This document shows positions 25,382 to 43,198 of a stretch of DNA of 43,198 bases, piece by piece. A program made the translations under genes and the position numbers. Source of the stretch: a virus (Duplodnaviria > Caudoviricetes); the IMG/VR virus record IMGVR_UViG_3300031953_000037, positions 1 to 43,198 of that record; one strand, 5' to 3'. Each line of letters opens with the position of its first letter. Positions within the stretch are counted from its first letter, which is position 1. The notes beneath the pieces are model-generated. The model ran no database searches. It saw only the letters and a program-made list of their open reading frames with translations, and had not been told where the DNA came from.

Positions 25382-25906
25382 ATGACCCGCGAAGATGTCC
25401 TTGAACGAGTTTCCTATGACCCCGAGCGAGGGACCTTTTATCGCTTGGAGCGCAGCGGGCGCGGCGGATGTAGAGGGGGATTGGTCCCCACTCAGATTAA
25501 TCACGCTGGGTATCCAGTGCTGTCTGTCGCCTGTCGAAAGTTTTTGGCGCACCGCCTAGCGTGGCTGGTCATGACGGGCGAGGATCGGGATCCGTCGCTG
25601 CCCTTAGACCACATCAACGGAGATCGATCTGATTTCCGCTGGAATAACATTCGTGCTGCGACTCCCGCACTGAACACTCAAAATCGCGGGATCGGAAAAA
25701 ATAACACGAGTGGCGTTTTGGGCGTTTGTTGGGACAAGCAGTCTTCTAGGTGGAAGGCTCGTGTTAATCGGGACGGAAAGCAGAACGTCGTGATGAGCGA
25801 TTGCTTTGGCCGGGCGGTTCGAGCCCGCCGCGAGATGGAAAAAGTATATTTTGAACCGGGCTTTTGTGGGTCTAGACGGCCTGCCTACGCTGGAGAACTG
25901 CGATGA
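25382..25906 (+). CDS. HNH homing endonuclease with AP2-like domain
   Basis: AHRLAW, DHINGDRSD.RWNN, NNTSGVLGVCW....RWKA. Confidence 0.9.
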   Translation: MTREDVLERVSYDPERGTFYRLERSGRGGCRGGLVPTQINHAGYPVLSVACRKFLAHRLAWLVMTGEDRDPSLPLDHINGDRSDFRWNNIRAATPALNTQNRGIGKNNTSGVLGVCWDKQSSRWKARVNRDGKQNVVMSDCFGRAVRARREMEKVYFEPGFCGSRRPAYAGELR

Positions 25907-28559: not shown

Positions 28560-29159
28560 TCAGGCCCTTGGCCTCTTCGGCGAAGATCGTCTCAGGACCC
28601 GCCGAGCGTGGTTTCCTTCATCGCTCCAAACCTGATTGTTCCTGATCTGGTGAATCAGGCTCGTGCTACAGCCGTACCTTTGGGCCGCACCGACAACGGA
28701 TCCATGTCTAGAGAAGTCGGTCTCTCTGATTTCCGCGACTTGTTTCTCAGTCAGTTTACAAGCTGGGTTCCGTTCACCGGAGGCCTCTCGTCCGTGGCGT
28801 CGTTTGTCATCTTCGTTTTCGATGAAGGTCGCCCATCGCAGGTTTGTGTAGCGGTTGTTTTGGTGGTTTCCATCGCCGTGCGCGACGAGGTCTTTATCGG
28901 CTGGGCGTGGCCCATGAAACGCTAAGCAAACTAGGCCTGAGACCTGTCGGGTGGTGATTACGCCTCTGACGCATGGCGTTACTAGAAAATACCCCTGTCT
29001 GTTTGTGTTCAACTTCAATACCACGCCTGAAGTTGTGGCGCGTGGAAGAGACCTTATCCTGCCCCAAGAGCTGGCTTGATAAAATCCGATCATGTCGGGT
29101 ATGTCGAGCCAGAACTCTTGCTCATCGGTCGCGCTAGTGGCATCGGTGGTTTCAGACAT
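28560..29159 (-). CDS. NUMOD4-HNH homing endonuclease with C-terminal HTH
   Basis: W.DIP...G.YQASSWGRIRS; V..LV..AFHGP; HGDGN..NN...NLRWAT; KLTEKQV.EIR. Confidence 0.9.
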   Translation of the reverse strand: MSETTDATSATDEQEFWLDIPDMIGFYQASSWGRIRSLPRATTSGVVLKLNTNRQGYFLVTPCVRGVITTRQVSGLVCLAFHGPRPADKDLVAHGDGNHQNNRYTNLRWATFIENEDDKRRHGREASGERNPACKLTEKQVAEIRETDFSRHGSVVGAAQRYGCSTSLIHQIRNNQVWSDEGNHARRVLRRSSPKRPRA

Positions 29160-31569: not shown

Positions 31570-32361
31570 TCAGCGGACCTGAGCGGAGCGGTCTTCGAAG
31601 AAGCGAACGCCAGGGATGGGTTTGATGGTGGCGGCGGTGGCGCCGATCTTCTTGTTCGCGGTGACGTAGGACCGAATAGCCTTCTCGATCTCGACGGCTC
31701 CGAAGTGATCGCCCAGGGCTCCAAGCGTGGCGCGAAGGGCGGTGCTGTTCATTACCTCGAACGTGAGTTTCGTGGCGCTCGTAACCGTACCGAAGCTGGT
31801 GGTTGTGCGGACGAGATCAGCGGCCGATCCGGTCGAGACCCGATCCAGTTTCTCCGCGACGGCCTGGCTGTCGAGGGCTGAATCTAGAATGGTCTCAGCC
31901 ACGTCGTTCAGACCTTGCGATTCTACTGCTGCCGCTGCGGCGGCGCGGCGATCTGCCTCGATCCGTTCCACGCGAGCGGCCTCGGCGGCCTCGGCCCGGC
32001 GCTTCTCTTCCACGATGCGATTGTGCGCGTTGATGCGGCCCAAGGCGACGGCGCTGGTGGCGTCGAGCTTGGCCTGACGCGGGGTGAAGAGTGCTTGGAC
32101 TTCCTTGCCAGCCTCGTCGAACCGCTTCTTCTCGGTGGTGCGCGCGGCTTCAAGGCCTGCCTTCGCAGAGCGCGCGTCCTTCACGTGCTTTGCCAGCCGG
32201 TCGAGATCGGCGTCGGTCTCGACCTTGGCGGGTAGCTGGGCCTCGGCGTTTAGAACGGCCGTCGCGATGACGAACGCCGCCTTGTGCTTCATGCCGATGA
32301 ACTCGGCATCGACGAGCGGGGCGTCGAGGTCGTTGCGAAGTTGGAGAGTGGTGTCGGTCAT
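31570..32361 (-). CDS. Coiled-coil protein of the recombination operon
   Basis: EAAR..EK..F; IPGVRFFE C-terminus. Confidence 0.7.
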   Translation of the reverse strand: MTDTTLQLRNDLDAPLVDAEFIGMKHKAAFVIATAVLNAEAQLPAKVETDADLDRLAKHVKDARSAKAGLEAARTTEKKRFDEAGKEVQALFTPRQAKLDATSAVALGRINAHNRIVEEKRRAEAAEAARVERIEADRRAAAAAAVESQGLNDVAETILDSALDSQAVAEKLDRVSTGSAADLVRTTTSFGTVTSATKLTFEVMNSTALRATLGALGDHFGAVEIEKAIRSYVTANKKIGATAATIKPIPGVRFFEDRSAQVR

Positions 32362-32525
32362 TTCTTCATTCCTTGCACGGCCAGCTCGGCCTCATGTTCT
32401 TCGGGGTAGAGAATTTCGCTCTCTTCGACCCAGGCGAAATCGGTTTCGATGTCGTCTCCGACGCGGGCTTCCGTTACATCCATGATGCGGAAGCCGCCGT
32501 GAACCATGACGGGGGTGAGTGACAT
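32358..32525 (-). CDS. Small acidic protein, first gene of the leftward operon
   Basis: GGAG RBS before ATG 32525; 55 aa, Glu/Asp rich. Confidence 0.55.
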   Translation of the reverse strand: MSLTPVMVHGGFRIMDVTEARVGDDIETDFAWVEESEILYPEEHEAELAVQGMKK

Positions 32526-32559
32526 TTGATGATCTCCGGGGAGGCCCCACGCCTCCGAT

Positions 32560-32644
32560 GACTGACGGTCGCATATCGGCGGCGATGGCGTCAACATAAA
32601 AAATCATATTGCAAAAGACGGGAGTGTGATGCCAGAATGTACGC
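32560..32644. promoter_or_regulatory. Divergent early promoter region
   Basis: AT-rich; rightward TTGCAA(32609)-N18-CAGAAT(32633); leftward TTGACG at 32594-32589. Confidence 0.65.
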
Positions 32645-32962
32645 ATGACACAAATCTTTCCTCGCATCATCCATGAACGACGGGTTGCTCTGCGCCTGTC
32701 GTTGTCTGAAGCCGCCAAGGTCACAGGCCTGTCGAAGCCGCACATTTGGCAGATGGAGCAAGGCCGGGCGCAGAACCCGTCTGTCTCGACGATAGGGCTT
32801 CTGGCTGATGGCTATCGGATTTCAACGGCCAGCCTATTCAAAGCGGCGCTTGACGACTGGCGGCTGCGCGGGCATTTGTTCGCTACCGCTGGCGTTGACC
32901 CCACCTCGCCGTCAGCGCAGACCGCGCCCGATGATTCCGCGTCGGGCGCGGTCGGCCAATGA
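32645..32962 (+). CDS. XRE/Cro-family HTH regulator
   Basis: R....LSL.EAAK.TGLSK.HIWQMEQG...NPS..T...LA. Confidence 0.88.
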   Translation: MTQIFPRIIHERRVALRLSLSEAAKVTGLSKPHIWQMEQGRAQNPSVSTIGLLADGYRISTASLFKAALDDWRLRGHLFATAGVDPTSPSAQTAPDDSASGAVGQ

Positions 32963-33285
32963 CCCCTCGACAATCTGAAATCCTCGCCTTTGTCCTGAAG
33001 TGGCAATGCGAGAAGCCATATTCCCCGACTGTGAAAGAGATTTCCACCGGTACGGGCGTCGGCGTGAACGCGACGATGCAGGCGCTGTGGGACCTTGAAG
33101 ACCTGGGCCACCTTCGGCGCCGTGGGAGAGCCTTGGCGCTCGTCAATGAGCCGGTGACCTTTGCTCGGATCGAGAAGGGTCCGAAGGTTGGATCAAACAT
33201 CCGACTTCCGTCAACAAACGCGCCATCTCTAGGATCTCTGCTGGCGACGTTCGACCGTATGCACAACGCGACGGAACCGCGATGA
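32959..33285 (+). CDS. LexA-type N-terminal winged helix, no peptidase domain
   Basis: TPRQ.EIL.F......PYSPTVKEI...L..LE..G.LRR. Confidence 0.8.
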   Translation: MTPRQSEILAFVLKWQCEKPYSPTVKEISTGTGVGVNATMQALWDLEDLGHLRRRGRALALVNEPVTFARIEKGPKVGSNIRLPSTNAPSLGSLLATFDRMHNATEPR

Positions 33286-33719
33286 GCTGGCCGCCTCAAC
33301 ATTTGCGCTTGATCGAGAAGAGCGCCAGGCCGAAACAGCGCCGAAAGCAGCCCGAGGCGGACCTGCAAGAGCTGATGGTCGATTTCCTCGACATCGCTCT
33401 GCCCCAGCCGTCGCCGGACTACTGGTGGTCGGCGACCTTGAACGGGGTCCGTCTGCCTAGCGCGCGGGCGAAGGCCAAGGCCAAGCGCCAGGGCTTGCGG
33501 CCGGGCCTGTTCGATCTGGTGTTCATGAAGCTGACGGGGCCAGACGCAGGCCAGACCTACCACTATGAGGTCAAGGCGGCGACTGGAACCCTGACCCCAG
33601 ATCAGAAGCGCATCCTCGACATCCTGTGGGTGGCGGGCCGTGGCGCGAGCGGTCGATCGGTGGAGAACCTGTGCGCGGCCCTGGTCGCGTGGGGATTCCC
33701 GTTGCGGGCGCGTGTCTGA
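33282..33719 (+). CDS. VRR-NUC / Holliday junction resolvase-like nuclease
   Basis: E..LQ; K.QGLRPG..DL; EVK...G.LTPDQK. Confidence 0.85.
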   Translation: MSWPPQHLRLIEKSARPKQRRKQPEADLQELMVDFLDIALPQPSPDYWWSATLNGVRLPSARAKAKAKRQGLRPGLFDLVFMKLTGPDAGQTYHYEVKAATGTLTPDQKRILDILWVAGRGASGRSVENLCAALVAWGFPLRARV

Positions 33720-33800
33720 TAGCGGATAAGGAGGGAGGGGAGCGGCCTGCCAGGGCCTGCCCCCCTCATTTGCAGCCGGTTCTTGAAGGAGCCAACCGAC

Positions 33801-33845
33801 GTGCCTGATCAGAATACATACGCCCGCATAGGGTTTCAAGGATGA
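33801..33845 (+). CDS. Putative 14-aa leader peptide (MPDQNTYARIGFQG) coupled to the initiator
   Basis: GAAGGAG 9 nt before GTG; its TGA overlaps the initiator ATG (ATGA). Confidence 0.55.
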   Translation: MPDQNTYARIGFQG

Positions 33846-34579
33846 GTTCGTGGGTCCGTCTCTGGCATGACATGCCGACTGATCCGAAGTGGCGCGTGGT
33901 TGCGCGCCGTTCGGGTCAACGCGTCGGTGACGTGATCGCGGTGTTCAACTTTCTCATGGTCGCGGCGAGTGCGAACGCAGACGAACGCGGGCGAACGGAT
34001 GCGTTCGAGAGCGAGGATGTTGCCGCCGCTCTCGATCTTGAGACCTCCGATGTAGAGGCCATCATCGTTGCGATGAAGGGCAAGGTCCTGGACGACGATG
34101 GAAGGCTTACCGGATGGTCAAAACGCCAGCCACAGCGGGAAGATGGCGCCGCTGAGAGGGCGGCAGCTTGGCGAGAGAAACGCAAGCGAACGCAAGCGAA
34201 CGCAGATGAACGCCCAGATACAGATGCAGAGTCAGATACAGACAAAAACGCTCACACGTTTTTGGGCGCGAGTGACGAAAGTTTTGAGAAAGCGCTGAAG
34301 GCATACCCGGCCAGCGGCAAGGCCGCGACCAATGTCCCCGCCGCTCGTGAGGCGTGGTCTCGCGCTGTCGCGACGGGCGGTGAAGATCGTCTTTTCGTAG
34401 CGGTCTCGTCCTACAGCTCTGCGCCTGTCGAGAAAGGCAGGACGGGAGGTGCGCCGGGATTTCATAAGTGGCTCGCCGAGGAACGTTGGAGAGCCTTTTT
34501 GCAAGATGACACCTCAACCGTATCGGACGCTGCGCTTGAAGCGCGCCGCGCCCTTCTGGAGAACATGACCGATGCCTAA
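33842..34579 (+). CDS. Phage replication initiator
   Basis: WVRLWHDMPTDPKW; W.KRQ..REDG.AER...WRE; internal iterons; C-terminal YP...WL..ERW. Confidence 0.8.
   Translation: MSSWVRLWHDMPTDPKWRVVARRSGQRVGDVIAVFNFLMVAASANADERGRTDAFESEDVAAALDLETSDVEAIIVAMKGKVLDDDGRLTGWSKRQPQREDGAAERAAAWREKRKRTQANADERPDTDAESDTDKNAHTFLGASDESFEKALKAYPASGKAATNVPAAREAWSRAVATGGEDRLFVAVSSYSSAPVEKGRTGGAPGFHKWLAEERWRAFLQDDTSTVSDAALEARRALLENMTDA
33971..34243. repeat. Putative origin iterons inside the initiator gene
   Basis: 10-bp-period GAACGC units at 33971-34000 and 34179-34213, inverted copy at 34001-34007, CAGAT/CAGA repeats to 34243. Confidence 0.6.
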
Positions 34580-34829
34580 GTTCACCCCTGTCCTTCGCCT
34601 GACCGTTCCTCGTGAACTATGGGATGAAATCGCGGACTATACCTCGCGTGAGTATGCCGACAGCTATCTGTGCGGGGCCGTCCTCCACAACAACCGTCTG
34701 TTGCCCCGTACTCGGATGGCCTGGACCCGTCTGATGGACAATTTCAATGCGATGGCGATCCTGAAAAAAAGGAAGATCGAGCTGGTGAAGCCGCCGATTT
34801 TCGACGGATCTCTTGGACCCATAGATTAA
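34572..34829 (+). CDS. Hypothetical protein after the initiator
   Basis: Overlaps the initiator stop; GGAGA RBS. Confidence 0.6.
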   Translation: MPKFTPVLRLTVPRELWDEIADYTSREYADSYLCGAVLHNNRLLPRTRMAWTRLMDNFNAMAILKKRKIELVKPPIFDGSLGPID

Positions 34830-34832
34830 GTG

Positions 34833-34862
34833 TTGACAGACCCCGCGCCGTTGCAATACCTG
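34833..34862 (+). promoter_or_regulatory. Sigma70-like promoter
   Basis: TTGACA at 34833 in an intergenic gap; weak -10 (CAATAC/ATACCT). Confidence 0.5.
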
Positions 34863-34893
34863 TTGCACATCAGCCGTGGGGGCTGACGGAGAA

Positions 34894-35085
34894 ATGACCA
34901 TGCGACCCTATGACGAAATCTGGCAAGGCGACTGTATGCGCGAGGACGCCATGCGTGAGCGGAACCACAACAACCGTTATCCAGACTATAGCATCCCGCC
35001 TTCGACGCGGCGGTTCACATGGCTGTCCTTGGCCGCTATCGCTGCGATCGTGGTCACAACCATCGCGGCCTTTATCGTACTATGA
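34894..35085 (+). CDS. Small protein with C-terminal TM
   Basis: GGAG RBS; hydrophobic C-terminus. Confidence 0.55.
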   Translation: MTMRPYDEIWQGDCMREDAMRERNHNNRYPDYSIPPSTRRFTWLSLAAIAAIVVTTIAAFIVL

Positions 35086-35504
35086 CGGCTATCTCCGACA
35101 TGGACCCGTCTGAGGTCGCGTCGTGGATCGCCTCGGCCGGCGCGGTGCTGGTCGAGAAAGACCCGGCTATGGCGGCGAAGACGTTCACCGATCTGAACGT
35201 AAGCGCCGATGCTGCGCTGGGCGAGAAGATCGTTCGGTATCGCCTGGGCGTGGCGCACAGCAAGCGGGCGGCGGTCGAGGCCCTGACGAACGAGATCGCA
35301 AAGATGCACTTCGTCACCGTTGATGCGATCATGGGGAGCCGCAAGATGCCGCACATTGCACAGGCCCGGCGACACCTGGCCCACGCTTTGCGGAACCGGC
35401 TGCACCTTTCCTTGGGTGACATCGCCCGCGTTATGAGGTCCAATCGCTCGACGGCGATGCGTCAGATCCGCGCTTGGAACGCGCACATCGGAGGTGGATC
35501 GTGA
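35082..35504 (+). CDS. DnaA C-terminal (domain IV) HTH protein
   Basis: I.GSRK..HIAQARR......R..L.LSL.DIAR.M..NRST; no AAA+ domain. Confidence 0.8.
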   Translation: MTAISDMDPSEVASWIASAGAVLVEKDPAMAAKTFTDLNVSADAALGEKIVRYRLGVAHSKRAAVEALTNEIAKMHFVTVDAIMGSRKMPHIAQARRHLAHALRNRLHLSLGDIARVMRSNRSTAMRQIRAWNAHIGGGS

Positions 35505-35881
35505 AGGCGCCGCAACGTCCGTCCATGTCGAAGGCCCGCAAGGATCGCCTGTGGCTCCGCGACAAGGGTGTCTGCTACCTCTGTGGCCTGAAGGTACTCG
35601 GCGGGCAGGCGTGGGACGCTGAGCATAAAATCCCGTGGGCTCTGAGCCAGGACGACAGCGACAAGAACCTTGGCGTGGCCCACAAGGACGGTTGCCACGC
35701 TCTGAAGACGAAATCCGACGTGAAGACGATCGCCAAAGCCAAGGCGCAGGCGGGCGAGACCGGACAATGGGCGCGGCGCGCTAAGAACGGACCCCAGCTC
35801 AAGAGCCGAGGGTTCGACAAATCACAGACGCGCGGGTTCGACGGCAAGGTCCGCACTCGCAAGAACGGAGAATCGAAATGA
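35501..35881 (+). CDS. HNH endonuclease (McrA-like)
   Basis: CYLCG, EHKIP, NL...H..CH..KT..D. Confidence 0.85.
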   Translation: MKAPQRPSMSKARKDRLWLRDKGVCYLCGLKVLGGQAWDAEHKIPWALSQDDSDKNLGVAHKDGCHALKTKSDVKTIAKAKAQAGETGQWARRAKNGPQLKSRGFDKSQTRGFDGKVRTRKNGESK

Positions 35882-36333
35882 CCGACACCCCTATGGGCGG
35901 GGCTTCTGTCTCGGAGGTGCTGGCTCATCTTGAAGCTGCTGAGCGCCCGTCTATCGTTCTCGACGCCGAGATTTGCTGGACGCTGGAACGCGACCGGGCA
36001 ACCGCTGCATTCTGGCGCGGAGCCATGGGCCTGCCGAAGCCATTGCCTGGCGAGTTCTCTCGGTTGCCGCGCGGCTTAGGAATGGCCTCGTTGGAGGCCG
36101 GGTCGCCGAACTACACCACCTCCCTAGACGCCGCCCTGGCTCTGGCGGAACGGGCGCTGCCGTGTTGCCGGTGCATCGTTGAGCGCGATCACGATGGCTC
36201 GGGATGGGCTTGCGTCCGGTCCTACGAGGGTGCCCCCGCAATTATGAGTGACGCCCCCACCCCTGCGCTCGCACTCTGCATCGCCATCCTCCGAGCCCGC
36301 CAAGCCTCTAACCCTACTGCGGAGGGGGTGTGA
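35878..36333 (+). CDS. Phage protein, ABA-sandwich-like family
   Basis: YTTSLDAALAL and APTPALALCIAILRA. Confidence 0.6.
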   Translation: MTDTPMGGASVSEVLAHLEAAERPSIVLDAEICWTLERDRATAAFWRGAMGLPKPLPGEFSRLPRGLGMASLEAGSPNYTTSLDAALALAERALPCCRCIVERDHDGSGWACVRSYEGAPAIMSDAPTPALALCIAILRARQASNPTAEGV

Positions 36334-37535
36334 TGGGCCTCGTCTATGGATCCGTCTGTTCGGGCATCGAGGCCGCGTCGGTCGCCTGGCATCCACTCGG
36401 CTGGCGGGCATCCTTCCTGTCCGAAATCGAAGCCTTCCCCCGCGCGGTCCTGGCGCATCACTACCCGGAGACCCCGCTGCATGGCGACTTCACGACGATC
36501 GAGGCCGGTCAATACGAGCCAATCGACCTTCTGGTCGGAGGAACACCTTGCCAGTCTTTCAGCATCGCCGGCCTCAGAGGCGGATTGGACGATGACCGCG
36601 GTAACCTGGCCCTCGAATATCTTAGGCTGGCTGACCGACTGCGGCCCCGATGGCTGGTTTGGGAGAACGTCCCCGGCGTCCTGTCGTCGAACGGAGGACG
36701 GGACTTTGGAGCCATTCTCGGGGGCATGGTCGAACTCGGGTACGGGTTCGCCTACCGAGTGCTTGACGCTAAGCACCTTGGAGTTCCCCAGCAGCGCCGT
36801 CGCGTCTTCGCTGTCGCATATTTTGGAGACTGGCGACGTGCCGCTGCGGTACTTTTTGAGCGCCAAAGCCTGTCTGGGCATTCTGCGCCGCGCCGCGAAG
36901 AGGAATCGGTCGTTGCCGCCCTCACTGCAAATGGCGTTGGAACGTGTGGCGCAGACGACAACCAGGGACAAGCCGGACATCTAATCCCGGCTGGGATTGG
37001 AACCGATGGGCAAACCGCGAGGTCGCTCACGGCGAGCCACACGGCGAGCCACACGGCGACCGGACGGCTTGATCCGAACGAATGCACCCTGATCGCCTTC
37101 AGCGCAAAAGACCACGGCGCCGACGCGATGTCGGATCTATCGCCCACGCTTAGGGCGGGCGGTCACAGCAAGAGCCACGCGAACGCTGGCGTCATGCCGG
37201 CCATCGCTTTCGCCCTTCGTGGACGAGAGACCGGAGCGGTGCCGGAAGTCATGGGTGATGGTGAGGTTGTGGGCGCTCTGCGGGCGGCCAGCGGCGGATC
37301 CAGCCGGGATTACATTGCCACCATGGGTGTCCGGCGCCTGACGCCCCGCGAGTGCGAGCGCCTTCAGGGATTCCCCGACGACTACACGGCCATCCAGATG
37401 CGCGGAAAGCCCGCTGCGGACGGTCCCCGATACAAAGCCCTCGGCAACTCGATGGCGGTTCCTGTGATGGCCTGGATCGGCCAGCGCATCGCCGACGTGG
37501 ACGCCATCCCCCTCCAACAGCGAGCCGCCGCATGA
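36333..37535 (+). CDS. DNA (cytosine-5) methyltransferase
   Basis: SVCSGIE, GGTPCQ, WENVPG, PQ.RRRVF, RRLTPRECERLQGFPD, LGNSMAV. Confidence 0.93.
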   Translation: MGLVYGSVCSGIEAASVAWHPLGWRASFLSEIEAFPRAVLAHHYPETPLHGDFTTIEAGQYEPIDLLVGGTPCQSFSIAGLRGGLDDDRGNLALEYLRLADRLRPRWLVWENVPGVLSSNGGRDFGAILGGMVELGYGFAYRVLDAKHLGVPQQRRRVFAVAYFGDWRRAAAVLFERQSLSGHSAPRREEESVVAALTANGVGTCGADDNQGQAGHLIPAGIGTDGQTARSLTASHTASHTATGRLDPNECTLIAFSAKDHGADAMSDLSPTLRAGGHSKSHANAGVMPAIAFALRGRETGAVPEVMGDGEVVGALRAASGGSSRDYIATMGVRRLTPRECERLQGFPDDYTAIQMRGKPAADGPRYKALGNSMAVPVMAWIGQRIADVDAIPLQQRAAA

Positions 37536-38128
37536 GCCCGACCCCGCAAACCCCGCCGACCGACCGGCCTCTGACGGCTGGTGACGTTCCTCTGCTGCGG
37601 GAGGGGGATGTGTTGCGGTGCACGAACCCTCACACGCGCGCGCATCTTGAAGGCGAAGAATACGCTTTCGGCAAGCGGACCCATAACGCGCCGGGTTCTG
37701 GAAACGACATCGTTATGAAGGGGGACCGACACGGCACATGGAGCGGCATCTTCACCTTCGTATCCCGCCCAGCAACGTCAGCAGCGAGCGAGGGGGAGAC
37801 GATTGAACGCCGCTTCCCGGCGCTTAACGACCACCTTATCCGTATGGCGCATACCGGCAGCACGGGCTCGCTCTATGAATGGGGCGACTTCTTCGACTGC
37901 CTGAAAGCCGCCCTCGCATCCCCGCCCGTCTCAGAACGGGAGAGGGAGTTGGAGGGGGCTTTGCGGGAGGCGCGGACAACCCTCTCTATGCTGCGCCGAA
38001 ACGTCGCCAGCGAGATCAAGAACCACGACGGGCTGTTCCGCTGGGAGGGCGTCCCCGAGGCCATCGACAGCCGCGTATCGGACATCGACCGAGCCCTCAC
38101 CGCCCAACCCGCAGGAGAGGGGAAGTGA
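37532..38128 (+). CDS. Modular hypothetical protein
   Basis: ATGA coupling at 37532; segments joined by AALASPP / RALTAQP linkers. Confidence 0.6.
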   Translation: MSPTPQTPPTDRPLTAGDVPLLREGDVLRCTNPHTRAHLEGEEYAFGKRTHNAPGSGNDIVMKGDRHGTWSGIFTFVSRPATSAASEGETIERRFPALNDHLIRMAHTGSTGSLYEWGDFFDCLKAALASPPVSERERELEGALREARTTLSMLRRNVASEIKNHDGLFRWEGVPEAIDSRVSDIDRALTAQPAGEGK

Positions 38129-38313
38129 GCGTCCTGCGCCCGAACTATCGCCGCGCCCGCGAACTCGCGTCTGAGATCGAAGACGCGATGGCCGACAAAG
38201 AGGCCGCCGAAGCAGCGGGAAACTTCAGTCAAGTTCAAGAACTGAACGAACTCCTGCACGAACTTCAACACGCCATGTTCCTGACTGGCGTCACATCGGA
38301 ATACGAGCTGTGA
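38125..38313 (+). CDS. Small acidic helical protein
   Basis: GGAGAGG RBS; GTGA overlaps at both ends. Confidence 0.6.
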   Translation: MSVLRPNYRRARELASEIEDAMADKEAAEAAGNFSQVQELNELLHELQHAMFLTGVTSEYEL

Positions 38314-38519
38314 GCGCTTGGTTCAAGGATCGGCGGCAGGAGTTCATCGCCGCGACGCTTCGCCAGTTTGGGCAGATCAGGCGGGCCGATCTGATGCGCG
38401 AGTTTGACATAAGCCAGCCCCAAGCCAGTAACGACATTTCCGCCTTCATGGCCGCTGATCCGCCCCACGTTCGATACGACGTGAGCGCCAAGGCCTATAT
38501 TTTTGAGGAGCCCGTCTGA
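38310..38519 (+). CDS. Stand-alone winged HTH resembling the N-terminal DNA-binding domain of CapW/BrxR-type WYL repressors
   Basis: RQEFI...L...G.IRRADLM.EF.IS.PQAS.DI..F....P....YD.SAKAY; 69 aa, no WYL domain. Confidence 0.7.
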   Translation: MSAWFKDRRQEFIAATLRQFGQIRRADLMREFDISQPQASNDISAFMAADPPHVRYDVSAKAYIFEEPV

Positions 38520-39034
38520 TGGCTGATGCAATGAAGCTGCTGCTAGAAGAGGCGCGCGATCTTCTGCTGGAACGCCGCCACGGCAACCCCGCAAGGTCGG
38601 CCGGTCACAATGCGCGCCTAGTGATCGAAGAAGCCCTCAAGATCGCCGCCTCCCCGCCAGCCCGCGAGGAAGCCCCAGCCGAGGGGGCGGGGGACTTGTA
38701 CGAGCGCGCTAAGGTCTTTGCGACGCGCGACAAGCCTTCCACCTCCTACCTCCAGCGTCGTCTCCAGATCGGCTACAATCAGGCGGCTGAGCTGATTGAG
38801 CGGATGGAATCCGAGGGGCTTATCAGTCGCCGTAATCACGCCGGGATGCGAACGATCCTTGTTCCGTACCTGGGCCGACTCGCTCCATCCGCGCGGGATA
38901 GGCGTCCTATGACCGATACGGAAATCCGCCAGTGGATCGACGCCTGCAACCATGAGCCCGGCCGCCAAGTGCTTCGGGACTATCTCGCCCTCCGCAACCG
39001 CACGTCGGAGCCGGAAGCGGGGGCTGTAAAATGA
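38519..39034 (+). CDS. Modular protein containing an FtsK gamma (KOPS-binding) domain
   Basis: DLYERAK....STSYLQRRLQIGYNQAAELIERMESEGLIS..NHAG.R.IL. Confidence 0.85.
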   Translation: MADAMKLLLEEARDLLLERRHGNPARSAGHNARLVIEEALKIAASPPAREEAPAEGAGDLYERAKVFATRDKPSTSYLQRRLQIGYNQAAELIERMESEGLISRRNHAGMRTILVPYLGRLAPSARDRRPMTDTEIRQWIDACNHEPGRQVLRDYLALRNRTSEPEAGAVK

Positions 39035-39501
39035 ATAGGGCTCGCAGGCGGACTTTAGAAAACTTCCTTCCCGAAATACCATCACGCATACAAATGGATG
39101 CAGTTGGTGGGTGCTGGCTTTGGGAGGGGGTTACCGACCGAATTGGGTACGGGAAGGTCAAGTTCAACAAAAAGACGGTCTCCGCACACCGCGCATCGTT
39201 CCTAGCACACGGAGGATCACTAACGCCTGGTCAATGCGTTTTACATTCCTGCGATGTTCCTCAGTGCATTAATCCATCACACCTAAGAGCGGGGTCGCTG
39301 GTGGAAAACGCACGCGAAGCTGCTGCGCGAGGTCGCCTTAGACCACGGGGCCGAATCACCGACCAAGAGAAACACCACGTTCTACGCCTCAAAGACGAGG
39401 GGTTTAGCCAGACAAAGATTGCCTCCCAAGTAGGTATCGATGTCTCCACAGTCAGAAAGATCGTAACGCTAATGACCGCCCTGAATGAGCAGCCCCAATG
39501 A
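39031..39501 (+). CDS. HNH homing endonuclease with C-terminal HTH
   Basis: CWLW.G, GYG, AHRAS, VLHSCD.P.C.NP.HL; visibly AT-richer than flanks. Confidence 0.9.
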   Translation: MNRARRRTLENFLPEIPSRIQMDAVGGCWLWEGVTDRIGYGKVKFNKKTVSAHRASFLAHGGSLTPGQCVLHSCDVPQCINPSHLRAGSLVENAREAAARGRLRPRGRITDQEKHHVLRLKDEGFSQTKIASQVGIDVSTVRKIVTLMTALNEQPQ

Positions 39502-40220
39502 CCGCCGTGGATCACGCCGAGCTGAAGCGGGTGGAAGGCGAAGGTAAGAGCCCCGTCTATACCGCCGCATACGACACCATCAGGAAGGGCGCGCCTGGGC
39601 TCAGTGACGCCACTTGTTCCGTCCTTGCCGTGTCCATCAATATGAAGGTCGCTATCAAGGTCACAGCCCCCCTCCTGTCCGAGATCGAAGGGCTGAAGGC
39701 TGCTCTGAAGAAATCCAATGCGGGGTTCGAGGAATACGAGCGCAAATTCTATCTAGCCACCGATGACGTTGATCGTCTCAAGCTGGCGATCTGCGGCGGG
39801 GAGGACGTGCCCGGTTCGATCAACGCCGTGTCGGTCGAGGACTGCGAACGGTTCATCACAGAGGAACGCGGGCGTCACATCGATACCGAGGCTAGGCTTG
39901 AGTACGTTAGGGCTTCCAGAGACGGCGCTGCTGGACGCGCACATGACCTCTACATGGCTCTCGCTGAGGTCAAGGAACAGGTCGTAACATATCCGCTGAG
40001 CGACAACTCGACCTGTATGTGCGGGGCTCCGCTTGGGGGTCATAACGTCGGCAGCGGTCACGCGCCGGTAAGTCTGGCCGACCACGCAATCAGCCTGATT
40101 GTTGAAGCTATCGACAAGGCGCTTCGTTTCGGTGCGCCGACTGATGGTCGCCCTGACGATTACGAAGGTCCCGATGTCGGGATGCACGACACCGAAATCT
40201 CGGAGCGCGACGATGACTGA
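39498..40220 (+). CDS. Modular hypothetical protein
   Basis: Coupled ORF; CMCG...H...H segment; shares a 33-bp repeat with the next gene. Confidence 0.6.
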   Translation: MTAVDHAELKRVEGEGKSPVYTAAYDTIRKGAPGLSDATCSVLAVSINMKVAIKVTAPLLSEIEGLKAALKKSNAGFEEYERKFYLATDDVDRLKLAICGGEDVPGSINAVSVEDCERFITEERGRHIDTEARLEYVRASRDGAAGRAHDLYMALAEVKEQVVTYPLSDNSTCMCGAPLGGHNVGSGHAPVSLADHAISLIVEAIDKALRFGAPTDGRPDDYEGPDVGMHDTEISERDDD

Positions 40221-40611
40221 GGCCCTTTACGCCCTCCTGTCCGAGATCGAAGGGCTGAAGGCTGAGCGGGATGTTGTGGCCGAAATCGCAGAAGAGCGGG
40301 AACGTCAGAGGTCCACTGAAGGATGGATGACAGCCCATGACGACGAGCATGACCGATACCAAATGGCTCAGGCCGCAGCCACTTATGCGCTCGCTGCGGC
40401 ATGGCCTGACGAGGCTGAGCGGTACGTCATGGACTACCGTGGCGAGGGGCAATGCGGCGGCGATCACCAGTCTACGCCCTACGAGCTATTCAAGCACTGG
40501 CCGTGGTCAGAGACGTGGTGGAAGCCGAAAAATCGTCGCCGTGATCTGGTCCGCGCAGGCGCTCTGATTGTCGCTGAAATCGAACGCTTGGACCGGAAGG
40601 CCGCGAAATGA
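40213..40611 (+). CDS. Conserved phage protein
   Basis: ER.RQ...EGW...HDD.H and WPW...WWKP..RRRDLVRAGALI.AEIERLDR; start placed at 40213. Confidence 0.7.
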   Translation: MTEALYALLSEIEGLKAERDVVAEIAEERERQRSTEGWMTAHDDEHDRYQMAQAAATYALAAAWPDEAERYVMDYRGEGQCGGDHQSTPYELFKHWPWSETWWKPKNRRRDLVRAGALIVAEIERLDRKAAK

Positions 40612-41039
40612 CCTTGTACCGCAAGACCGCGCTCGTCAGCGCAGAGCAATTCCTGCCATCCGAGGGCAAAATCCCGGAGGGTGTATTCTCTGACGGGCTC
40701 TCCGATCCTCGCAGATCAACCGCCGAATGGTGTCTTCAAACCCTGGAGGGGCGGCACACGCTCCGCAACGGCGACTACATCTGCACCGGCCCGAACGGTG
40801 AGAAATGGAACGTTGAACAATCCATTTTCGAGGCGACCTATGAACTCGCCGCCCTCCGCACCCAGGCCCCGGATAGCTGGAGGCCGGACAGGGAGGCGGT
40901 GCGAAAGGCTGTTCTCGCGATGGAAGCGACAATCGTGTGGGACAAGGAACGCAAATACAAGATGCCGTATCGTGTCCGCGATCCGCTTTACGCGGCCTGT
41001 GCCGCCCTTCGCCCCCAGACAGCGGAGAGCGGGAAGTGA
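40608..41039 (+). CDS. PGDYG-like phage protein
   Basis: YRK...V.A.Q; TLEG......GDYI..G..GE......IF..TYE. Confidence 0.7.
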   Translation: MTLYRKTALVSAEQFLPSEGKIPEGVFSDGLSDPRRSTAEWCLQTLEGRHTLRNGDYICTGPNGEKWNVEQSIFEATYELAALRTQAPDSWRPDREAVRKAVLAMEATIVWDKERKYKMPYRVRDPLYAACAALRPQTAESGK

Positions 41040-41317
41040 GCGACACAACCGCATATTTCGAGGCCGCTTATCCTGATCCCGACTGCGGATGCCCCGTCGA
41101 GGAATGGGTCGTCTGCGGCATCACCATGCAGATCCATTTCGAGCCAGACGGAACGATGGAGGTCTTTGCGGACGCCGGGGAATGGGAGTGCGAAGTACCG
41201 CTCAAAGCCAAGTCGATGAGCGAAGGCCGAGACGAGGCATTCGCCTGGGCTCGCGGTCTTCCGACCGAGGAAGAACTCGCCGCCCGTTCCGCCCTCACAG
41301 GGAGCGCACAGGGATGA
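41036..41317 (+). CDS. Acidic hypothetical protein
   Basis: GGAGAG RBS; GTGA overlap. Confidence 0.6.
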   Translation: MSDTTAYFEAAYPDPDCGCPVEEWVVCGITMQIHFEPDGTMEVFADAGEWECEVPLKAKSMSEGRDEAFAWARGLPTEEELAARSALTGSAQG

Positions 41318-41326
41318 GTGGGATGC

Positions 41327-41361
41327 TTGCGGCTTGTAGATACGCGGTGTAGATACAGAGC
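41327..41361 (+). promoter_or_regulatory. Promoter with a tandem TGTAGATAC operator
   Basis: TTGCGG-N17-TAGATA-N6-ATG; TGTAGATAC at 41335-41343 and 41348-41356. Confidence 0.65.
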
Positions 41362-41829
41362 ATGGCACGAAAACCATTTCCCATCCGCCTCGATACGACT
41401 GTGATCGAGAAGATCGACGCGCTCTCGAAAAGCCTTGGCATCCCCAAGAGCCAGATCGTTGACGACGCCCTTGATCAACACCTCGACAAGCTCAAGAGCT
41501 ACGAGGAAATGGACAAGCGAACCCCGAAGCAAGTGAAGGCCGATCGCGCGCGGATCGTGAAAGCGTTGAGCGCGCCCGACCCGGCCCTTGGTGACGTGAC
41601 GTGGAAGCCCGGCCCTGATGCACCGAACAAGCTGACGCCAGGCGGCATCACCTACGTCGATGGCTTCTCTGATGCTGCTGTCGTCGCCGGCCGGATGAAG
41701 GCTGAAGCCAAGGTCCGCACCCAGCCCAAGGTCAAGCATTTGAAGCCGACTGACGATCTGCGCTCAGGCCTGGGACAAACCCGTACAGTGAGGGGGTATG
41801 CCAGCGATGGTAGCCCGATCTATCGGTGA
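41362..41829 (+). CDS. Ribbon-helix-helix DNA-binding protein with C-terminal extension
   Basis: RKPFPIRLD..VIEKIDALSKSLGIPKSQIVDDALD. Confidence 0.8.
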   Translation: MARKPFPIRLDTTVIEKIDALSKSLGIPKSQIVDDALDQHLDKLKSYEEMDKRTPKQVKADRARIVKALSAPDPALGDVTWKPGPDAPNKLTPGGITYVDGFSDAAVVAGRMKAEAKVRTQPKVKHLKPTDDLRSGLGQTRTVRGYASDGSPIYR

Positions 41830-42113
41830 GCCCGGCACTTGAGAAGGCAGCGAGGGCTGCTGCTGACGCTGATGCCAAGCTGAGCAACGGCCCGTCGCTC
41901 TATGCGAACTGCCCCGCTGTTTACGACGCCATCGCCCGCGCCGTCCTTCTTGCGATCAGGGAGCCTGACGACAAGGCCGTGATGGCTGGCGCTGAGTGCG
42001 TGTGGGATGAGCCGGGGCGCTGGAGCCAAACGCCACCACAGTCTGAACAGGACGAAGCACGAAACGCCTTTACCGCCATGATCGACGCGGTTCTGGGCGA
42101 GAAGCCCGCATGA
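41826..42113 (+). CDS. Hypothetical protein
   Basis: ARAVL.AIREP; F.AMIDA.L motif common in phage ORFs. Confidence 0.65.
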   Translation: MSPALEKAARAAADADAKLSNGPSLYANCPAVYDAIARAVLLAIREPDDKAVMAGAECVWDEPGRWSQTPPQSEQDEARNAFTAMIDAVLGEKPA

Positions 42114-42346
42114 CCAAGCAGGACCACATCGACGCCTTCGCCGATAAGCACGCGCTCTGCTGCGCCGGCTGCGACTTCTGGCGCTGGATCAACAGTGTGG
42201 TGGGCGAGTGCGTTCGCCATGCTCCAAATCCGGCCCATGACGCTGCTGCTGGCCTTGGCATCCACGGCTTCAGTGCTGGCCCTGTCTCGTCGATGCTGGT
42301 GAAGCGTGACCATTGGTGCGGCGACTTTGTAGATACGCCACGATGA
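42110..42346 (+). CDS. Cys-rich small protein
   Basis: CCAGCDFW, GEC.R.AP, HWCGDF. Confidence 0.65.
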   Translation: MTKQDHIDAFADKHALCCAGCDFWRWINSVVGECVRHAPNPAHDAAAGLGIHGFSAGPVSSMLVKRDHWCGDFVDTPR

Positions 42347-42867
42347 CCGACAAGCCTAAGACCCTCAACGCTCGACAGGAAGCGTTCTGCCAGTCGTATG
42401 CGCGATCTGCCAATGCCACCCAGGCCGCGAAGGATGCGGGATACAGCCAAAAGACGGCGTATGCTCAAGGTTTCCGCCTGCTGAAAGATGCTGAAATCCT
42501 ATCTCGCGTGAGGGATATTAGCCAAGAGCGGTTTCGTGCGGCCCATATGACGCCCGACGAGACCCTGGCGCTGATCGCCAAGCGGTCGCGGTTCAGCCTC
42601 AAGGGCATGGTCAAACTGATGGACGGTGTGCCCGTGGTCGATCTGGAGAACGCGACCGACGAACAGCTTGAGTGCTTGTCCGAAGCCTCCATGTCCGAGA
42701 CCGGCGTGCTGAAGGTGAAGGGACCAAACGTCGATGCCTCCCTGACCACGATGGCCCGTATCCAAGGGCTGTTGAAGGACAAGGTTGAGGTGTCGGTCGA
42801 CAGCGACTTCGCGGCCAAGATGGCGGCTGCATTTGCGCGGGCACGTCCCGCTGAGGGAGAAGAGTGA
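42343..42867 (+). CDS. terS: Terminase small subunit
   Basis: LN.RQE.FC..Y....NATQAA..AGYS.KTA..QG.RLL; start 42343. Confidence 0.9.
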   Translation: MTDKPKTLNARQEAFCQSYARSANATQAAKDAGYSQKTAYAQGFRLLKDAEILSRVRDISQERFRAAHMTPDETLALIAKRSRFSLKGMVKLMDGVPVVDLENATDEQLECLSEASMSETGVLKVKGPNVDASLTTMARIQGLLKDKVEVSVDSDFAAKMAAAFARARPAEGEE

Positions 42868-43079
42868 TGGACAAGAGCGACCTGACCGACGATCTGCGCG
42901 GGCCGGCCGAGATCAAGGCGGCGTGCCTGGTGGCGGTATTTGATGCGTGGGGAAATCGCCTTGGAGACGATGGCACGGAAAGCGCGGTCAACGCCGTCCT
43001 AGACACGATCATCGCGCACAGCCAGTCCCCCCGCACGGTTGACGAGCTGGTCAGGATCAGGGGGCCAATCTCGGATTGA
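42867..43079 (+). CDS. Hypothetical protein
   Basis: Coupled to the terS stop. Confidence 0.55.
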   Translation: MDKSDLTDDLRGPAEIKAACLVAVFDAWGNRLGDDGTESAVNAVLDTIIAHSQSPRTVDELVRIRGPISD

Positions 43080-43105
43080 CCAACGCTCCACAGTCTGTTG
43101 ATAGT
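43076..43105 (+). promoter_or_regulatory. Sigma70-like promoter
   Basis: TTGACC-N18-GATAGT upstream of the RBS for ORF 15. Confidence 0.5.
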
Positions 43106-43124
43106 GTCGGGCGCTCGTGGGGAG

Positions 43125-43198
43125 CGACGGAGAGACAGATGACCAAGGAAGAACACGACGCGCTGCGGGCTCAGACCGTGGCGGATATGCACGCGATG
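43125..43198. repeat. Terminal direct repeat, copy 2
   Basis: Identical to 1-74. Confidence 0.95.

Follow-up and report, generated by a model that had tools for sequence, protein, structure and literature searches.

The window analyzed here, a virus record of 43,198 bases, is a whole genome with direct terminal repeats. Its genes include those for terminase, a portal-like protein, capsid, and tail, together with a recombination block (Erf/RecE), and small genes follow one another in a long rightward run; the complete record contains no tyrosine integrase. The leftward and rightward gene runs diverge at positions 32358-33285, a region with one HTH gene of the HTH_3 type and another of the LexA type, and four HNH endonuclease genes (25382-25906, 28560-29159, 35501-35881, and 39031-39501) are present in this 43-kb phage. 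By annotation scan, the rightward accessory run (32645..43079, plus strand) features HTH and LexA-like regulators, a replication initiator, HNH nucleases, an RHH protein, the terminase small subunit, and a C5 DNA methyltransferase (36330-37535, plus strand). A scan of 32300-43198 for sigma-70 promoters and terminators returned chance-level results. Within the run, a frame of 69 amino acids extends from GTG to TGA on the plus strand (38310..38519) and encodes a stand-alone winged helix-turn-helix (wHTH) of the CapW/BrxR type, without linker, WYL, or WCX, as assigned with PF26109, phmmer, AlphaFold2, and Foldseek. Its start overlaps (GTGA) the stop of an adjoining 62-aa ORF of no known family (38125..38313, plus strand), to which it is probably coupled, and its own stop overlaps (TGATG) the start of a 171-aa ORF with an FtsK-gamma domain (38519..39034, plus strand). 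The lone FtsK-gamma domain encoded by this small ORF immediately after the solo gene (38519-39034), itself a KOPS-binding wHTH, is another DNA-binding head separated from a host protein. Neither adjoining ORF is a conserved partner of the wHTH gene in the loci of its relatives.

The structural genes of the phage gave little indication of its host: the best INPHARED matches of the terminase reach at most 46% and offer no host pointer, and the major capsid protein is matched in only 1 of 351 Caulobacteraceae genomes, at 38%, which assigns no host. Close relatives of the wHTH gene occur in five bacterial genomes, the alphaproteobacterial Brevundimonas diminuta, Sphingobium, Devosia, and Rhodobacterales, and a fifth lysogen that falls under the genus search made for the Sphingobium one. 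Furthermore, a homologue of the ORF at 37532 lies directly upstream of the solo relative in the B. diminuta prophage. From the taxonomy of the five lysogens (where named) and this homologue, we infer an alphaproteobacterial host.

Below an E-value of 0.1, a phmmer search of the PDB recovered only CapW chains (3 of the 8 matches at E<=10): 7tb6 at 6e-8, 7tb5 at 2e-7, and 9c5g at 2e-5, aligned ungapped across residues 3-64. The AlphaFold2 model (pLDDT 90.6) comprises three helices and a two-strand wing. In the structural comparison suggested with the original prediction, all eight Foldseek matches at E<=0.001 are CapW or BrxR (TMq 0.81-0.90) rather than DriD or unrelated HTH families, and unrelated wHTHs appear from E 0.02 on; DriD and PafBC supply no chain to the phmmer matches at E<=10 or to Foldseek ranks 1-50. 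PF26109 (WHD_BrxR) is precomputed on the protein and on all 120 matches listed, and a local Pfam scan and PHROGs returned nothing on it. These comparisons show that the protein is homologous to the CapW/BrxR wHTH, as first read by eye from its residue pattern, and that the sensor has been lost. The WYL domain (PF13280) is missing from the ORF and from the rest of the complete phage record, in a search whose control was positive in 7 of 14 genomes. The stop had been expected where the WYL domain begins; WYL is indeed absent, but the ORF ends earlier, ahead of the dimerizing linker helices (CapW residues about 71-136). The gene is not, however, a member of the CapW/BrxR family: the sensor domains are missing, its surroundings are phage accessory genes and not a defense operon, and the genome contains no operator-like site.

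Short proteins that match number 222 (37-121 aa); the 119 listed among them besides the phage protein are 72-85% identical to it. Only 9 of 7,995 longer candidates match, and these comprise 4 close relatives with unrelated tails, 4 full CapWs (44-47%), and 1 partial match. A profile search recovered 1,353 clusters at E<=0.001. Its best 150 supplied 149 new representatives, of which 12 are CapW-like (9 assigned from the linker profile and 3 by eye, some being short CapW fragments) and 137 are stand-alone, so that the proposed count of WYL-less homologues reveals a wide spread in phages. Likewise, the three best PF26109 clusters are 50-81% viral among their few members with a record. In INPHARED, the 69-aa query matched only Sonora (38%), and another member used as query gave two weak Acinetobacter matches; the 30 of 230 plasmid matches listed are WYL proteins or regulators (one unannotated), all below 60%.

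The solo gene typically sits in the middle of an operon, where it overlaps neighbors that differ between loci. It has no conserved partner gene, as the best real neighbor family is present in 9 of 108 loci; in five relatives' loci an integrase lies downstream and ends the operon. Two solo copies occur at 2 of 142 loci, 1.0 and 2.3 kb apart, as divergent pairs on one contig (L121:1329 and 2336; L197:2028 and 4350), and the phage described here has one copy. Heads of the CapW type (113-165 aa) that lack WYL and carry different C-terminal tails also occur in Caulobacteraceae chromosomes (L086:4805-5143, L087:4257-4739, and L088:1578-2072), and those of L087 and L088 adjoin an alcohol-dehydrogenase-like gene outside any obvious prophage.

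An ORF that ends where a truncation would fall, in a family whose 12 CapW-like representatives include CapW fragments, could be a decayed fragment or assembly artifact of a capW gene. This explanation is refuted by the size of the short family, the uniform ORF ends, the substitution pattern, and the tree, and we give it practically no credence. Among ORFs read from DNA, 117 of the 118 closed ones stop within 60 aa past the wing, and the linker HMM detects linker sequence in none of 119 viral and metagenome loci, a set from which two partial matches and the contig of the window itself were excluded. Against 16 in-register relatives (L028, one codon out of register, is excluded from the pN range), pN is 0.10-0.24 and pS 0.57-0.90, the latter near saturation; with pN far below pS, sequence comparison shows an intact gene under purifying selection. 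A tree of 63 columns separates the solos from CapW at weak support. The copy of Sonora falls inside the CapWs (97/86), although a single solo clade survives the AU test on the same 63 columns (p-AU 0.19). This copy (CPT_Sonora_088, L035:3980-4207) encodes a solo wHTH that shares about 55% identity with CapW heads and ends in a short tail resembling that of CapW; it looks like an independent truncation. Sonora is a cultured Stenotrophomonas phage and infects a species with a characterized CapW. The literature within reach of our search, which covered few subscription journals, contains no description of WYL-less phage CapW heads that we could find. Overall, the solo wHTHs are a genuine variant family, so far undescribed, for which a candidate role in counter-defense is plausible.

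Residues with which CapW holds DNA are kept in the protein. In the accessible text of PMC9122588, R32A or the triple change S42A/Q45A/S47A abolishes DNA binding by S. maltophilia CapW. In the ungapped phmmer alignment these four residues are identical in the phage protein: R25 in helix 2 (residues 25-32; 38382..38405, plus strand) corresponds to R32, and S35, Q38, and S40 in the recognition helix (residues 35-48; 38412..38453, plus strand) correspond to S42, Q45, and S47. All four are retained in 81 of 120 close relatives (at least one is altered in the other 39) and in 78 of the 123 distant solos that could be scored (34-56% identity), a set chosen by the close-family profile, which favors residue conservation there. 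All 122 full-length alphaproteobacterial CapWs and all 12 CapW-like rows retain them as well; the CapW sample (123) is one close clade and exaggerates the contrast in drift between solos and CapW. In helix 1 (residues 3-20; 38316..38369, plus strand; AlphaFold2 model and alignment), R9 aligns with the backbone contact R17 of BrxR-Efer (R11 of BrxR-Acin) and is invariant at every aligned row of both solo sets; R17 is essential in BrxR according to the available portion of PMC9122601. In the wing (residues 54-65; 38469..38504, plus strand), K61 and Y63 align with K64 and Y66 of BrxR-Acin. Of the ten BrxR-Acin contacts described in the accessible part of PMC9122589, five are identical in the phage protein (R9, S35, Q38, K61, and Y63) and five are not matched (R38, Q39, K46, R47, and H59); the equivalents of K46/R47 are S44/A45, and the solved CapWs likewise lack them. 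DNA binding by the protein is strongly implied by these residues.

The least variable positions (R9, R25, K61, and Y63) belong to backbone contacts, wing, and core, while base-reading sites vary; position 36, the equivalent of the base-specific BrxR R38, varies more than any other site in the domain core, at about 3 bits of entropy. This pattern would suit a low-specificity DNA-binding accessory protein that coats or protects DNA, or broadly damps host transcription, with its CapW ancestry incidental. In the same direction, the distant-solo profile weakly matches SSV1 F-112 (E 3.7e-4), and BrxR itself shows non-specific, low-affinity DNA binding, by the accessible text of PMC9122589. We nevertheless consider this role unlikely: the net charge of the protein is -1, unlike typical non-specific binders, and S-x-P-Q-A-S is still the commonest form of the recognition motif in both close relatives (68/120) and distant solos (57/123).

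Helix 1 differs from CapW on its other side. The conserved CapW residues R16 and W19 are replaced by T and Q in the phage protein; the R16 plus W/Y19 pair is present in 122 of 122 full-length CapWs and 11 of 12 CapW-like rows versus 0 of 120 close and 1 of 123 distant solos, and is thus gone in 242 of 243. This pair probably packs on the CapW linker, and we interpret the solos as having kept the DNA face while the probable linker-packing face was remodeled. The helix (RRQEFIAATLRQFGQ) is also the best-conserved stretch of the close family; its F20 never varies there, and the CapW residue at this position is polar. Such conservation would be expected if the protein replaced a native wHTH in the CapW/BrxR dimers of the host and locked or disabled them, or if it bound another host protein through helix 1, and the CapW wHTH does pack on its partner's WYL domain in the available text of PMC11662680. 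However, loss of the R/W pair with retention of the DNA face is the reverse of what a structural decoy predicts, and we regard protein contact as quite improbable. Interference with the host repressor protein, the second mode of action considered in the original prediction, is likewise less favored since the conserved face is the DNA face.

A candidate operator was derived from 23 Caulobacteraceae and other alphaproteobacterial CapW promoters. It is a 23-bp palindrome with the core CGTA-N9-TACG and an information content of 16.8 (8.2-8.8 in three shuffles), found from 2 of 6 seeds at width 23. Each of the 11 Sphingomonadaceae promoters held out from the derivation scores with the motif, at a level that at most 3 of 200 shuffles reach, and the E. 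coli CapW probe printed in the accessible text of PMC11662680 shares the core by eye. The complete phage, by comparison, contains no site of at least 11 bits (best 9.8, p 0.5); a CapW-type target of the 69-aa protein would therefore lie outside the phage. Across 701 kb around 108 solo genes there is at most a slight excess of sites (18 versus 11.9 expected at >=11 bits; 5 versus 1.8 at >=14 bits), and the median motif score in the 108 solo upstream regions equals that of shuffles. One of the 108 loci carries a CapW-type site upstream of the solo gene (0 of 200 shuffles). At L109:3959-3981, a near-perfect palindrome of 19.7 bits lies just upstream of the solo start, is the sole copy of the core in 78 kb, and stands beside the start of a divergent HNH gene. 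The site ties solos to CapW-type operators in a single case and fits autoregulation or an HNH promoter as well. A further site of 16.9 bits (L016:3614-3636) lies in the Devosia prophage, 6 kb from the solo gene and upstream of two unannotated ORFs.

Most small HTH genes of accessory operons regulate themselves. The phage protein might accordingly be an Aca/Cro-like regulator of the phage's own genes, derived from CapW and acting on a phage site of other spacing or sequence. The palindrome directly upstream of the L109 gene and the prophage site of L016 are both compatible with this, and a recognition helix that varies across phages is expected of private operators. The scans for the CapW-type motif, both in the complete phage genome and around the 108 loci, do not favor it, and neither does the position of the gene in mid-operon among overlapping neighbors, none of them conserved. 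We consider regulation of the phage's own genes rather unlikely, though not to be dismissed lightly.

Host CapW genes are commonly linked to defense. Among 20 sampled loci (84 of 135 ORFs scanned), 16 adjoin recognizable defense genes, with CBASS, BREX, type I RM, CRISPR I-G, Druantia, and Hma represented. Of the five lysogens that carry a solo gene, three also have a full CapW. It adjoins CBASS in B. diminuta; in the Rhodobacterales genome its neighbor is BREX, and in the third lysogen an Hma-like helicase. A CapW match occurs in 6-22% of matched background genomes, so that most sampled candidate hosts have none. The probability of at least three is 0.021 for this post hoc observation on n=5, and a nonsignificant 0.063 if the background is 1.5 times higher. 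The recognition helices of solo and host CapW are similar by eye in one of the three lysogens. In Brevundimonas diminuta ATCC 11568, the prophage solo gene (L013:10001-10231) coexists with a capW that faces a CBASS cyclase and phospholipase (L036:9619-13588).

We tentatively favor, at somewhat less than an even chance, the reading that the stand-alone CapW/BrxR-type head binds host CapW-type operators and keeps defense promoters shut after the host repressor has been released. The solo gene would be expressed with the early or middle accessory genes. Single-stranded DNA from infection or prophage induction would release host CapW from its operator, and the sensor-less head would refill the vacated site by sequence-specific binding, perhaps aided by a new dimer face that helix 1 provides, or by high copy number. 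With WYL missing, the head presumably neither senses ssDNA nor is released, and defense promoters would stay shut to the benefit of the phage. According to the accessible portion of PMC11662680, host CapW is released by the ssDNA that infection or induction generates, and sensor-dead CapW mutants strongly weaken CBASS protection against prophage induction; the available text of 10.1101/2025.11.13.688357 adds that WYL derepression primes cells against phages carrying inhibitors. A gain for a phage that blocks derepression is plausible on both grounds.

In favor of operator occupancy we count the kept DNA-contact residues, the lost R/W pair, purifying selection, a validated motif missing from the phage, the lack of a partner gene, defense-linked host CapWs, the lysogen co-occurrence, the L109 site, and the AmrZ precedent described below. 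The integrase-ending operons of five relatives supply a motive, given the weakness of sensor-dead CapW against prophage induction. The absence of the dimerizing linker is the main mechanistic gap. CapW and BrxR bind DNA as domain-swapped dimers, which the linker and WYL/WCX hold together, and dimeric CapW has an affinity of only 0.3-3 uM, as far as the accessible parts of the literature describe; the linker, WYL, and WCX that keep the two CapW heads in register are all missing here. Also counted against occupancy are a recognition helix whose drift in solos exceeds that of the CapW sample (one close clade) and the CapW match in only 6-22% of sampled candidate hosts. Furthermore, constitutively repressing CapW mutants still block lytic lambda, in the available text on those mutants, and the present phage is without integrase. 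Finally, BrxR and WYL-DE of V. cholerae show no cross-talk in the accessible part of 10.1101/2025.11.13.688357, which argues that WYL operators are not freely interchangeable.

The closest known proteins delimit what is distinctive in the phage family. CapW, the CBASS repressor (7TB6, 7TB5, and 9C5G; PMC9122588 and PMC11662680), shares the wHTH fold (TMq 0.81-0.90) at 32-42% identity with identical equivalents of R32, S42, Q45, and S47, whereas the phage protein, lacking linker, WYL, and WCX, would have no ssDNA sensing and has no known dimer interface; its gene is phage-borne and mid-operon, with no adjoining defense operon and no upstream operator. BrxR, repressor of BREX and defense islands (7QFZ, 7T8K/7T8L; PMC9122601 and PMC9122589), has the same wHTH (TMq 0.77-0.88) with equivalents of R11/R17, S37, Q40, K64, and Y66 kept, but identity is 23-27%, R38, Q39, K46, R47, and H59 are not kept, and the sensor domains are missing. 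SSV1 F-112 (PDB 2VQC) is also a small stand-alone viral wHTH (profile E 3.7e-4, fold E 0.02, TMq 0.67), but it belongs to an archaeal virus and matches far more weakly than CapW. The nearest functional precedent is provided by phage and plasmid AmrZ homologues, which repress type I-F CRISPR-Cas in Pseudomonas by experiment in the accessible text of 10.1101/673095. These are mobile copies of a host repressor that keep the DNA-contact residues and silence defense transcription, a likeness predicted only for the wHTH; they have an unrelated ribbon-helix-helix fold, and sensor loss is the distinctive step of the phage wHTH. This analysis newly contributes a validated motif for host operators and the finding that the phage lacks it, as well as the L109 site and the co-occurrence in lysogens.

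A broader and more doubtful proposal is that phages domesticated the CapW/BrxR head as uninducible, broad-range repressors that silence CBASS, BREX, RM, CRISPR, and Druantia together through a common operator and thereby jam the ssDNA alarm, possibly as a repeated invention given that Sonora nests among CapWs. Such repressors would be aimed at immune priming, not at any single defense protein. If the phage protein instead proves to be an ordinary phage regulator, it would still represent an undescribed family and show what a CapW head does when the dimer scaffold is gone. WYL repressors govern many unrelated defense systems via one ssDNA cue. If operator occupancy is correct, one phage protein of 70 aa would block derepression and so counter several defense systems at the level of regulation, and would offer a direct test of why inducible immunity matters in prophage induction and priming.
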